Source: Dictyostelium discoideum
Lineage: Eukaryota
Length of the DNA stretch: 64,000 nucleotides
Direction of reading: 5' to 3'
NCBI GenBank assembly: GCA_000004695.1
Contig: CM000154.2
Span: 3,616,001-3,680,000 of the forward strand
This document shows positions 7,616 to 11,711 of the stretch, piece by piece; position 1 is the first letter of the stretch, and each line of letters starts with the position of its first letter. Made by a program: the position numbers and the translations under genes. The notes below the pieces were generated by a model, which was not told the DNA's origin, made no database searches, and saw only the letters and a list, made by a program, of their open reading frames with translations.

Positions 7616-10600
7616 ATGACATTAATATCAATAATAAAAAAAAATTTAATTGGTGTGATAATAATACTTGCAATTGGACTACATATAACATTAATATATA
7701 AATATTCAACATTCAGTTTTATAAATAATAAAAATAATAGGAATAATTTACCACCACAACATCAACAACCTTCAAATATTCAACATAATATTCAACATGA
7801 TATTCATCAAAAACCACATTATTCAAATAAACAATCACAAAAAACTCAACAACAAAATGAATCACCATTAGAAGGTCAAAAATTTATTTATTCAAAACAA
7901 AAGGAAAAGATTTTAAAATATATCGATTATAAACAATTTGGTTTATTTAATGGTGGTGGAGGTGTTATAGTTAATTCAAAGCCATCAAATACAAATGATA
8001 ATGGTGGTATTTATAAGGATTTAAATTTAAATGAATTGGATGAAATTTCATCTTGGAGTCCAAATACTATTGTTGATTTTAATAAGAGACATGGTGATGA
8101 TTCATTACCTTCAATATGTTCAGAGATTGATTTTCAAGAGATTAAAACTTGTGAAGGATCAAATTATTATCGAGCAATGGTAACACCAACACCAGTATTA
8201 GATGAGAATTCAATGAATTATACTTTGAAACCAAATTCACAATATAGAGCAAAGTTTAACTATTACCCAAGAGAATTCTCCAAACAACCTTTAATTACAA
8301 TTTTAACAGCATTTTATAATATTGAGCCCGATATATTTGAAGAATCGGCTGCAACTGTTTTTGGCCAATCACTTCAAAATTTCGAATGGGTAATTGTAAA
8401 TGATTGTTCACCAAATCAAACATTGGTTGATTTATCACTTGGAAAGTATAGAGAATTGGCAAAGATTGATCCAAGAATTGTTATTATAGATTTAAAAAAG
8501 AATGTTCGTTTACCTGGTGCAAGAAATGCTGGTGTTAAAGTTGCACGTGGTAAATATATTGTTTCATTGGATCCTGATGATATGTTTGAAAATACCTATT
8601 TGGAAAAAGCAGTTTGGTTCTTAGAAACCCATAAAGAATATACACTTTGTAATGCTTGGACTGTTGGTTTTGCAAATAAATCTTATGTTTGGAAAAATGG
8701 TTATCATAATGGTGATAGAAATTTAAAAGAAAATCAAATTACTGTTGCTTCAGTAATGAGAGTAAGTTTAATTAAAAAAAAATTTAATAAAAATTAATAT
8801 ATATATATATTAATAAATAAAAATTTTTTTTTTTAAATAGACTCAAGCATTAAGAGATGTTGGTGGATTTGATAGTAAATTAATTCATGGTATGGAAGAT
8901 TGGGATCTTTGGATAAGAATGGCTGATAATGGTCATTGGGGACATACATTAGAAGAATTTCATTTTTGGTATCGTGTTAGTCCACCAGGTAAATGGGACG
9001 CAATTGATAATTTAGCAAAGTTTAATGCATTTTTAGAGAATCAACAAGTAAAATATAAAAATGCCTATGGTAAAGGTGTTCCAAAATTATCAAGACCTCC
9101 ACAAGAAAAGATGGAAGCAGTGGATGATTTAATTCCATTTGAAAATAATTTAAAGAAATGTAGACCACGTGTACTTTTATTAATACCATACATGGAAGTT
9201 GGTGGTGCTGATCAATTCAATTATAATTTTGCTCAAGGAATGGTTTTAGATGGTTGGGAAGTTAGTATTGCTACAACCAAAACCTCTGATAATAAATGGT
9301 TCCCACAATTTGCAAGAGTTACTCCAGATATATTTATAATGCCAAGATTCTCTAAAAATACTGATCAATGTAGATTCCTTGCATATTATATTAAATCAAG
9401 ACAATTTGATGTGGTTTATGTTAGTAATTCAGAACAAGCCTATCATTATCTCTCTTATTTAAGAGCAAATGCACCTGGTCCTGCCTATATAGATTATACT
9501 CATTCAGAGACTCCAAAATGGAAAGATGGAGGTTATGCACGTTATAGTTTTGGTTCAGAGAAATTATTGGATAGATCAATTTTTGCATCGGAACATCTTC
9601 GTCAATATTGTATAAGAAGAGGTCATAATGCAAATAAAACAGCAACTGTTTTAATTGGTATCGATAGTGATAAATATGTACCAAAACCAGAGAATAGAGC
9701 AATTATTCGTAAAGAGTTGGGCTTTCCCGATAATGTTTTGGTAATTGTATTTGTTGCACGTTTAGAATCTGAAAAACAACCAGAAGTATTTGCAGAAGTT
9801 TTAAGAAGAGTTGATGAAATGGGTTATGATTTTAGAGCGATTTCAATTGGTGGTGGTTTATTATTTAATGATTTAAATGAAACTATTTCAAAGAGTGGAT
9901 TATCAGAAAAGGTTAGATTACTTGGTAATATTCCAAACTCTCAAGTATCAAAATATGTATCTGGTTCGGATGTTTTCTTCCTCCCATCAAAAGTTGAAGG
10001 TATTTCATTGGCAATCTATGAAGCTATGTCTCAACAAGTTTGTGCAGTATCAGCAAAAGTTGGTGGTCAAGCTGAATTGGTAACTCCAGATGTTGGGTTT
10101 TTAGTTGTACCTGGTACACCAACTGAAGTTGATGAATATACAGAGATCATTGCAGATTTGGCAAGTAATCTTACATTGGCATCTGAGTTGGGTAAGAAAT
10201 CATTGGAAAAAATATTGAATGGTTTCTCTGTAAAGGATACACTTCATAGAATGAAAGAAGAATTTTGTAACTCTGCCATTGTAACACGTTATACTACTCC
10301 AATGTTTACCAATAAATTATTTTCAAAACTTTCAAATGAACAAGCAGTCTTGGGTCATGAATATGAAAGAGCAATCGATGAACTTTTACCAATGTGGAAT
10401 CAACTTACATCTTTAACAAAACAATTAGCACCACCACCAACTTTAACCGAAAAAGAAATTAAACGTAAACCATCACCCTATCCATTACATAAACCAGAGG
10501 AAGTTTTAGATTCAATCAATATAACAGGTTTAAGAGTTGTAGAGAATATAATGATTGAAAAGAAAAAAGTTGATAGAAAAATGAAAATTATACTTAAAGA

Positions 10601-11711
10601 TTTTCAAGAACAATTCATTAGAAGAAATCCAAAATTTGCTGATAAACAATTGGTCCCAAATGAATTCCTTCATCAATATAATCATGGTGTTGATAATTGG
10701 GATGATGAATTACCTTATCCATATCAACAACAAGAATATGTTGCATATATTCCAAATGCATTTGTTGGTACAGGTGAATCTGCAACCATTTTCGATTGGG
10801 ATAGAGTTTTTCTTTTAAATTATTCACCAACTCAACAAGAAACCTTTACAATGCCATTAGAAGAATCAAGAATTTGTCATGTTGAAAAAACAAAAAAAAT
10901 GGTTACCCTTTTACAAAAACAATTCTCTTTTGAAAATTTTATAATAGATCAACTTCCAAAATTATCATTAGTACTTGAAGAATTAGAACTTGATCCAGAA
11001 ATTAAAATACTTGTACCATTTACAGATTTTGCTAAAACCATTATGGTTGATACATTAAAGTTCTCACCAGATAGAATCATTTATTTTAAACCAGGATCTG
11101 GTTGGGATCCATGTGTTGTTTTCTTTGCAAATACTTTATTACTTCCAACACCAATACCACCTGGTCAACCACCAAGAGAAATGATTTCAAAACTTCGTGA
11201 TTACTTTTATCAAAAGAACGATATAGATATTGTTGCTCCTATTAATAGAAATGTTATAATGTATGCCTCAAGAAAATCAACATTATCTCCATTGAGAAAA
11301 GTTTCAAATGAACAAAAAGTTATTGAAACCATTAAAAACATTTTACAATCTCAAGGTGAAGGAAAATATGAATTCATCGAATGGGATGGTTTGGAAACTA
11401 TTACACCAGAGTTGGTTCAATTATCCAGTCGTGTTAAAATTTTAATTGGTATGACAGGAGCAAATTTATTACCAATGGTAGTTTGTCAACCAAATACAAT
11501 CGTTGTAGAATTTATGCATGAAAATCCTTGGTTATCATTTTGGAGTACATCTGAATCATTACAACATGAAAATTGGATGATTCCAATTAAAGCAACATCC
11601 CATGATTCTTTAGAAATTCAAGTACCAATTGATCAATTAACAAATACTTTAAATCAAATTTTTAATCCTCAACAACAACAACAACAATCTTCTTCGTCTA
11701 ATTCCAAATAA
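7616..11711 (+). CDS. Trimodular Golgi-type glycosyltransferase: N-terminal signal-anchor, GT2 (GT-A, DxD) domain, GT4 domain, C-terminal GT61/DUF563-like domain; 2 exons, ~1338 aa
   Basis: join(7616..8761, 8841..11711). Donor ATGAGA|GTAAGT at 8762 and acceptor ttttaaatag|ACTCAAGCA at 8840 give a 79-bp phase-0 intron that keeps the frame into ORF 8892..11711. N-terminus MTLISIIKKNLIGVIIILAIGLHITLIY is a type-II membrane anchor. GT2 signatures: LITILTAFYN...VIVNDCS...SLDPDDM, then ...HGMEDWDLWIRM. GT4 signatures: RVLLLIPYMEVGGADQF...VFVARLESEKQ...FFLPSKVEGISLAIYEAMSQQVCAVSAKVGGQAELV. GT61-like signatures: EWDGLETITPELVQLSSRVKILIGMTGANLLPMVVCQPNTIVVEF. Confidence 0.8.

Follow-up and report, generated by a model that had tools for sequence, protein, structure and literature searches.

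Positions 7616..11711 of the 64,000-nt window of Dictyostelium discoideum DNA analysed here are best explained, taken as a whole, as pgtB (DDB_G0290079), the gene for a membrane-anchored protein that carries GT2, GT4 and GT61-like modules and that published work links to the spore-coat polysaccharide (probability about 0.9). The observation holds, but it is already known: the gene is named, it was the subject of a West laboratory study in 2009, and the three-domain make-up of its product is already in print. All coordinates below are window positions on the + strand.

Gene structure and identity of pgtB

The open reading frame listing shows two frames in this region, 7616..8797 and 8892..11711, which differ in phase. 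An earlier note on this DNA had seen no stop in 4 kb. The unspliced frame does stop, at 8795..8797, and the claim is corrected by documenting a canonical intron of 79 nt (8762..8840, GTAAGT...ATAG, with the donor GTAAGT starting at 8762) that splits the gene and shifts the reading frame. The GC content of this intron is 3.8%, compared to 27–31% in the exons. Its removal yields a product of 1338 aa that runs from the ATG at 7616 to the stop at 11709..11711, in line with the length (~1340 aa), start and stop given earlier. Exon 1 (7616..8761) encodes aa 1–382, which comprise the cytosolic tail, the membrane anchor, a low-complexity stem and GT2 up to the intron; exon 2 (8841..11711) encodes aa 383–1338 plus the stop, and contains the remainder of GT2, GT4, a linker, the GT61-like module and a poly-Q/S tail.

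The intron interrupts the GT2 domain. At the junction the exons read ...VASVMR on one side and TQALRDVGGFD... on the other, and splicing restores the GT2 motif. In a full-length look-up, the spliced product was identical over all 1338 residues to XP_635901.1 (EAL62400.1, Q54GL6), and given this exact match to the RefSeq protein the splice at 8762..8840 is the annotated one. Two separate genes, one for a GT2 fragment and one for a GT4-GT61 protein, a possibility raised in the earlier note, would fit the stop at 8795..8797 and the two listed frames, but this reading is effectively refuted by the canonical AT-rich intron, by the rejoining of two halves of one GT2 domain, by the identity to the RefSeq protein, and by colinearity across the junction with eight orthologues and a bacterial GT2-GT4 protein.

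DDB_G0290079 carries the name pgtB in Table S5 of a 2026 paper on EOGT (PMC13123520) and likewise in the glycogene table of the D. purpureum genome paper. The orthologues named in these tables, DICPUDRAFT_47347 (P0002) and CYY_002535 (P0003), are also the best matches found here. A full-text literature search for the locus tag DDB_G0290079 returned no match. The neighbouring genes encode a sortilin/VPS10-domain protein, a thioesterase, a Lines-domain protein and an SPX/ankyrin/GDPD protein, and no functional link between these and pgtB was found. When 2.9 kb of upstream sequence was scanned for prespore-type promoter motifs (CA/G-rich), only a few scattered CACAC/GTGTG matches appeared, and these are uninformative.

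Membrane anchor, GT2 and GT4

The best Kyte-Doolittle window of 19 residues (2.27) begins at residue 10. Values above 1.6 are confined to windows beginning at residues 1–15, and the maximum elsewhere is 1.43. PgtB hence has a short basic tail and one N-terminal hydrophobic segment (aa 10–28, LIGVIIILAIGLHITLIYK; 7643..7699), with none elsewhere. This single segment lies directly after K8-K9 and has been retained in all full-length orthologues, which supports a type II signal anchor at the N-terminus. In recent automated NCBI gene models, an upstream exon at 7283..7425 takes the place of the conserved anchor; this alternative start is probably an error. The anchor is followed by a Q/N-rich stem (aa 31–145; 7706..8050), which is poorly conserved, with a mean identity of 18% among dictyostelids. 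Conservation is higher in the modules: 70% for GT2, 77% for GT4 and 50–54% for the GT61-like module.

The order previously described, namely an anchor and then GT2, GT4 and GT61-like modules in one polypeptide, is borne out, as all Pfam matches in PgtB (Glycos_transf_2, Glyco_transf_4, Glycos_transf_1 and Glyco_transf_61) exceed their gathering scores. The GT2 module (aa 226–440; 8291..9014, across the intron) has a GT-A fold and matches PF00535, PF10111 and PF13632, the first over residues 229–363 (E = 2e-17, 64.1 bits versus a cut-off of 23.3). The nucleotide-binding Asp, the DxD and the (E/D)D-x-D motif are all present (D263, D319-P-D321-D322 and E401-D402-W-D404) and are invariant in eight orthologues. 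These motifs, including DxD, align with those of GalT1 (5hea) and of one domain of the E. coli K4 chondroitin polymerase (K4CP; PDB 2z86), an enzyme with two GT2 domains.

The GT4 module (aa 491–860; 9165..10274) has a GT-B fold of the retaining type. It combines Glyco_transf_4 (PF13439; residues 502–659, E = 3.8e-9, 37.2 bits versus a cut-off of 28.5) and Glycos_transf_1 (PF00534; residues 668–829, E = 7.9e-27, 94.3 bits versus 26.4). The motifs G503-G504, R689, K694, E768-x7-E776 (E768-GISLAIY-E776) and E794 are invariant in the same number of orthologues. Among solved structures, the closest are PimB' (3oka), BshA and MshA; E-x7-E aligns with all of these, and the phosphate-binding pair R689 and K694 aligns along with it in PimB'. 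Judged by sequence, then, GT2 (inverting type) and GT4 (retaining type) are intact, with all catalytic motifs kept, and the earlier assignment of a GT-A fold with DxD to the one and a GT-B fold with E-x7-E to the other stands. GT4 is joined to the third module by a linker (aa 861–925; 10275..10469) that is probably helical and is also found in the bacterial GT2-GT4 homologue.

The GT61-like module

Residues 926–1325 (10470..11669) form the third module. Glyco_transf_61 (PF04577) matches residues 1079–1271 (10929..11507; E = 2.2e-15, 57.5 bits versus a cut-off of 27). An AlphaFold2 model of the module (pLDDT 79.6, pTM 0.82) was searched with Foldseek, and the only significant matches were sixteen chains of POMGNT2 (PDB 6xi2, 7e9j; E = 3e-10 to 3e-8), with the next matches at E > 1e-3. 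On this model, the module has the GT-B fold of POMGNT2 and GT61. The earlier note had spoken of three different folds. GT-A is indeed distinct from GT-B, but there are two folds rather than three, because GT4 and GT61 share GT-B (Foldseek; PMC13123520). The SR...R-x-x-NE and G-x-x-G motifs of POMGNT2 and EOGT (9wjk) align with PgtB, although identity to these proteins is only 10–14%, and the acceptor of PgtB is presumably a polysaccharide rather than a protein.

In this family, the proposed catalytic base is the His of an N-x-x-H(H)-F motif (H166 in POMGNT2, H248 in EOGT), and a second His lies in G-M-H-G-A. UDP binding in EOGT involves an N-R-R triad, N245/R372/R377 (PMC13123520). The same paper describes the GT2, GT4 and GT61-like domains of PgtB and notes F-R-R in place of N-R-R. 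Our alignments show an incomplete triad, with R1193 and R1201 present and the Asn position occupied by F, or by M in Synstelium. Relative to EOGT, PgtB has F1077 for N245, E1080/N1081 for H248/H249, and T1254 for the His of M-H-G-A. Thus F1077, N1081 and T1254 occupy the positions of the canonical GT61 N, H and H. All seven dictyostelids compared have F/M, N and T at these positions; residue 1080 is E, G, S or T, followed by N at 1081, and residue 1254 is T. By contrast, EOGT, the stand-alone relatives and the Clastostelium orthologue carry His at 1081 as well as at the HG position; Clastostelium also retains the Asn. POMGNT2 could be aligned at only one of the three positions, the HG position, where its His is present. 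Other residues, R1193, R1201, N1205, E1206 and E1272, are kept and invariant.

One caveat concerns the N-terminal half of the module. Profiles A2 and A3 aligned with POMGNT2 and EOGT over the C-terminal half only, and a profile restricted to the N-terminal half gave nothing but chance matches. Because this anchoring failed, we infer the register of N-x-x-H, and with it the pairing of N1081 with the catalytic His, from the EOGT motif G-I-N245-M-Y-H248-H249-F-C, as given by mutagenesis primers (PMC13123520), and from the alignment of stand-alone relatives.

The claim of three catalytic modules therefore survives for GT2 and GT4, whose motifs are intact, but is weakened for the third. Its assignment as GT61-like holds by both fold and Pfam match; its Asn and His residues, however, are missing in 7/7 dictyostelids, which goes part of the way to what the earlier note had itself named as refuting its proposal, a module without catalytic residues. 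Since the Asn and His have been lost in dictyostelids while the two phosphate-binding arginines are kept and the module is under selection, it would either form a third linkage by an altered chemistry or bind a nucleotide sugar or acceptor non-catalytically.

Two readings can be set against each other here. It is possible, at somewhat below even odds, that all three modules are active and add one sugar each, so as to build a trisaccharide repeat or a branched motif, with the GT61-like module making the third, beta linkage. The GT61 fold, the Pfam score above cut-off and the five invariant residues are consistent with this reading, as is the conservation of the module (50–54%) when compared to the unconstrained stem (18%). 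The spore-coat polysaccharide is, moreover, described as branched. But every dictyostelid compared has F/M, N and T in place of the N, H and H seen in EOGT, stand-alone relatives and Clastostelium, which argues against this activity, and the module shows lower conservation than either GT2 or GT4.

Of comparable standing, and likewise tentative, is the idea that the dictyostelid module is a pseudo-glycosyltransferase that binds UDP, an acceptor or a partner and is kept to position or regulate a GT2-GT4 polymerase. The loss of the Asn and both His in all seven dictyostelids, with retention in Clastostelium, points in this direction, as do the lower Pfam GT61 score in D. discoideum than in Clastostelium (57.5 versus 83.3 bits) and the existence of bacterial and yeast GT2-GT4 homologues that have no third module. 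On the other hand, the invariance of the N-E motif and of both phosphate-binding arginines suggests that nucleotide-sugar binding has been kept. Asn can also substitute for His in some active sites, and the substitution at the N-terminal motif depends on a register that we infer.

Distribution and proposed role

The GT2-GT4-GT61-like fusion was found only in Dictyostelia and Clastostelium, and the best 150 of the 2726 sequences related to the third module included no other GT2-GT4-GT61 protein. Long GT61 matches considered as candidates (P0200, P0250 and P0150) were rejected: they combine GT61 with an FkbM methyltransferase, a weak sub-threshold match resembling GT47 (exostosin), or MORN repeats. 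The first two modules have a wider distribution. A GT2-GT4 protein of Planctomycetota (MBS0197416.1, 838 aa) is colinear with PgtB 194–930 at 38% identity (E = 3e-169, 21 gaps in 740 columns), and GT2-GT4 proteins of Rhodotorula are colinear with the same segment at 32% identity. Both share the DxD, ED-x-D, GG, R/K and E-x7-E motifs with PgtB but, unlike PgtB, lack the N-terminal anchor, the stem and the GT61-like module.

Animal LARGE, a type II Golgi protein that consists of GT8 and GT49, likewise pairs an inverting with a retaining domain. PgtB resembles it in both respects, although the family combination differs (GT2 + GT4 + GT61-like). LARGE and K4CP each have two transferase domains per polypeptide, an arrangement in which an alternating polymer is possible, and PgtB may be likened to them on the basis of its sequence. 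Within D. discoideum, PgtA is cytoplasmic and modifies Skp1. It combines GT2 and GT74, and is listed with PgtC (GT2) and PgtD (GT4) in the same glycogene table as PgtB (D. purpureum genome paper). The paralogues PgtC and PgtD, tabulated without GT61, are absent from the PgtB matches.

West et al. 2009 (Eukaryot Cell 8:27) is said to concern the galactose/N-acetylgalactosamine heteropolysaccharide of the spore coat. Citing texts that give this study as their source call pgtB a "poly-glycosyltransferase" of spore-wall synthesis; as far as those citations go, the view that the protein has no obvious assigned pathway is overturned. For the pgtB knockout phenotype, the sources are the title of that study and secondary citations. 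In addition, ChIP places pgtB among the targets of the sporulation transcription factor SpaA. The spore coat contains a Gal/GalNAc heteropolysaccharide, which is stored in prespore vesicles before its secretion. The catalytic domains of PgtB are predicted to face the lumen of the Golgi/prespore-vesicle pathway, where GT2 and GT4 would use UDP-sugars to add Gal or GalNAc in beta and alpha linkage, either alternately or to form a backbone with branches, in a mode patterned on the bifunctional polymerases K4CP and LARGE.

With regard to the history of the third module, we tentatively suggest, with the odds leaning slightly the other way, that N→F/M, H→N and H→T replacements took place after the split between dictyostelids and protosporangiids, while the arginines and purifying selection were kept, such that the module may now be a pseudo-glycosyltransferase or work by an undescribed GT61 mechanism. 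The fusion itself would then have originated in Eumycetozoa from a GT2-GT4 cassette that bacteria also have. The canonical GT61 residues occur in the protosteloid orthologue, that of Clastostelium, but are missing from every dictyostelid examined, which makes the role of the third module a testable question.

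Gene model and identity of pgtB

In the ORF listing for 7616..11711 (+), two open reading frames lie in differing frames, 7616..8797 (393 aa) and 8892..11711 (939 aa). Between them is a 79-nt intron (8762..8840, +) with canonical ends (GTAAGT...ATAG) and a GC content of 3.8%, whereas the exons on either side have 27% and 31%; the window as a whole has ∼20% GC and its coding islands ∼30%, values typical for Dictyostelium. Splicing joins ...VASVMR to TQALRDVGGFDSKLIHGMEDWDLW..., thereby completing the GT2 domain, and yields a product of 1338 aa with its sole stop at 11709..11711. 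The coordinates, length and architecture in the earlier note are confirmed. The intron corrects one point: the note saw no stop, and the region is in fact interrupted.

By sequence look-up, the spliced protein is identical over its full length to XP_635901.1 / EAL62400.1 / UniProt Q54GL6, an entry of D. discoideum AX4 titled "hypothetical protein DDB_G0290079". Two publications give this gene the name pgtB: Tashima et al. 2026 (PMC13123520), in their Table S5, and the paper on the D. purpureum genome (PMC3188802), whose table of glycogenes describes it as "GT Family 2; GT Family 4, bifunctional" and gives DPU 47347 as its orthologue, with 66% identity. DPU 47347 is P0002 of the present search (DICPUDRAFT_47347), likewise 66% identical. 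Hence, it is virtually certain (probability about 0.99) that the gene is pgtB of D. discoideum, which is already known and named, with a functional study in print.

The lone hydrophobic segment of PgtB (residues 10-28) directly follows K8-K9; outside this region, the Kyte-Doolittle maximum for 19-residue windows across the whole protein is 1.43. The segment fits a type II signal anchor and is kept in all full-length orthologues. Newer automated NCBI models (e.g. KAM9947998.1, 1344 aa) start instead at an ATG at 7283 and join an additional 5' exon (7283..7425) to 7741 (intron GT 7426 ... AG 7740), which drops the anchor-coding stretch 7616..7740. As every full-length orthologue retains the anchor, we favour the AX4 model, and the models beginning at 7283 are probably mistaken at their 5' end. 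A (TAAA)n microsatellite of ∼80 nt (7530..7612) abuts the start codon.

Convergent with pgtB, across a gap of ∼230 nt of AT-rich 3' sequence, is a gene for a sortilin/VPS10-domain protein of 677 aa (11939..13972, −; Pfam Sortilin-Vps10 9e-50, Sortilin_C 3e-21) with a membrane segment at its C-terminal end. The other neighbours noted are genes for a thioesterase, for a Lines-domain protein and for a protein that combines SPX, ankyrin, CBM20 and GDPD. The last is probably a single Pho81/GDE1-like gene across 20614..25371 (+), in which a short intron separates an SPX-domain ORF (20614..21861, +) from one that carries ankyrin repeats together with CBM20 and GDPD (21988..25371, +). Two identical tRNA-Val(UAC) genes lie 1.4 kb apart (42886..42961 and 44286..44361, +). 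No sign of a functional cluster around pgtB was seen among the neighbours examined.

Catalytic motifs and the GT61-like module

Four Pfam domains match PgtB, each over its gathering score: Glycos_transf_2 (residues 229-363, E 2e-17), Glyco_transf_4 (502-659, E 3.8e-9), Glycos_transf_1 (668-829, E 7.9e-27) and Glyco_transf_61 (1079-1271, E 2.2e-15). The GT2, GT4 and GT61 domains proposed earlier were thus all recovered. An NCBIfam scan gave sub-threshold matches only, to bacterial exopolysaccharide/teichuronic-acid GT4 and GT2 enzymes. Among solved structures, GT2 is closest to GalT1 (5hea) and to K4CP, a chondroitin polymerase (2z86/2z87), to whose nucleotide-binding Asp and DxD the residues D263 (N-D-x-S) and D319-P-D321-D322 align. 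GT4 is closest to PimB' (3oka), BshA and MshA, and R689, K694 and E768-x7-E776 align with such relatives. All of these residues are invariant in eight full-length orthologues, as are E401-D402-W-D404, G503-G504 and E794.

To examine the third module, we modelled residues 925-1338 with AlphaFold2 from the orthologue alignment (pLDDT 79.6, pTM 0.82). Foldseek matched this model to sixteen POMGNT2 (GT61) chains in the PDB (E 3e-10 to 3e-8), with modest TM-scores (≤0.45), and to nothing else under E 1e-3; profile searches of PDB sequences returned POMGNT2 and EOGT, nothing more. These results indicate that the GT61 fold and family resemblance are real. The modelled fold is GT-B, the same as GT4, so the GT61 likeness put forward earlier stands but the claim of a distinct fold does not.

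Judged from sequence, the active site of this module is non-canonical. In the aligned C-terminal half, R1193 and R1201 fall on the SR...R-x-x-NE motif and should correspond to R294/R298 of POMGNT2 and R372/R377 of EOGT, and T1254 occupies the His site of POMGNT2 (M-H-G-A-Q-L) and EOGT (M-H-G-A-G-L). The N-terminal motif reads G-I-N245-M-Y-H248-H249-F-C in EOGT (taken from mutagenesis primers, PMC13123520), Y-G-(H/N)-x-Y-Y-H-F in the closest stand-alone relatives and F1077-S-F-E-N1081-F in D. discoideum PgtB. We infer the register here, because no HMM anchoring of the N-terminal half to solved structures was obtained. Among seven dictyostelids, the Asn position (1077) is F in six and M in one, the His position (1081) is N and the HG position (1254) is T; the protosteloid Clastostelium recurvatum has N, H and H, and therefore a higher Pfam GT61 score (83.3 versus 57.5 bits for D. 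discoideum). The F-for-N change is already in print as the "F-R-R constellation" (Tashima et al. 2026, PMC13123520), whose authors suggest that UDP-sugar binding may be impaired by the aromatic side chain; we found no published description of the His losses or the Clastostelium contrast. Thus, of the three catalytic modules envisaged earlier, GT2 and GT4 have intact motifs, but the third lacks the canonical Asn and His in the seven dictyostelids.

The Clastostelium transcriptome contains at least three PgtB-like transcripts: P0008 (full GT2-GT4-GT61, 1253 aa), P0281 (GT4-GT61, 890 aa) and the fragment P0135. Both His absent from dictyostelid PgtB are retained in P0008 and in P0133 (413 aa, from the 90% cluster of P0281); P0135 retains the motif His and has T at the HG position.

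Distribution and origin of the fusion

Three-domain orthologues occur in D. purpureum, Polysphondylium violaceum, Tieghemostelium lacteum, Cavenderia fasciculata, Synstelium polycarpum and C. recurvatum, a member of Protosporangiida. D. firmibasis, D. citrinum and D. dimigraforme are counted with them as members of a 90%-identity cluster, and the Acytostelium gene model is incomplete (truncated). When 1.84 billion representative proteins were searched exhaustively with a profile of the third module, 2726 relatives reached E ≤ 0.001. In the top 150 of these, only the PgtB cluster and Clastostelium/metagenome fragments are PgtB-like, the remainder being stand-alone or otherwise-fused GT61/DUF563 proteins.

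A Planctomycetota protein of 838 aa is colinear with PgtB 194-930 (GT2, GT4 and linker; 38% identity, E 3e-169, 21 gaps in 740 columns), and a Rhodotorula protein matches this part at 32%. It follows that the GT2-GT4 cassette is older and also exists in bacteria. Bacterial proteins of ∼830 aa from Planctomycetota MAGs and metagenome contigs (P0010-P0013), with colinear GT2-GT4 and 37-38% identity, are nearer to this part of PgtB than any non-amoebozoan eukaryote found, and horizontal transfer of the cassette is therefore a possibility. PgtB's anchor, stem and GT61-like module were detected solely in the sampled Eumycetozoa.

Probable role in the spore wall

The earlier note saw no assigned pathway. 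This is not so, as the literature cites pgtB for spore-wall synthesis, a general role that we consider very probable. In a 2009 study (West et al.), disruption of pgtB, not pgtC, reportedly abolished the Gal/GalNAc polysaccharide, and spores of the disruptant are said to be more stress-sensitive. Other papers describe a Gal/GalNAc heteropolysaccharide in the spore coat and its retention in prespore vesicles until secretion; this composition and storage are consistent with a lumenal, membrane-anchored synthase.

The catalytic domains of PgtB would then face the lumen and use UDP-sugars, with GT2 (inverting) adding beta-linked and GT4 (retaining) alpha-linked Gal or GalNAc. By analogy with K4CP and the animal bifunctional enzyme LARGE, the two may together build a polysaccharide backbone and its branches. 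The third module may add a further sugar via altered chemistry or serve a non-catalytic role, and we regard these as about evenly balanced. Among dictyostelids, GT2 reaches 70% identity, GT4 77% and the stem 18%. At 50-54%, the third module is therefore constrained, albeit less tightly than GT2 and GT4. What remains novel is the dictyostelid-specific loss of canonical GT61 residues in this module.
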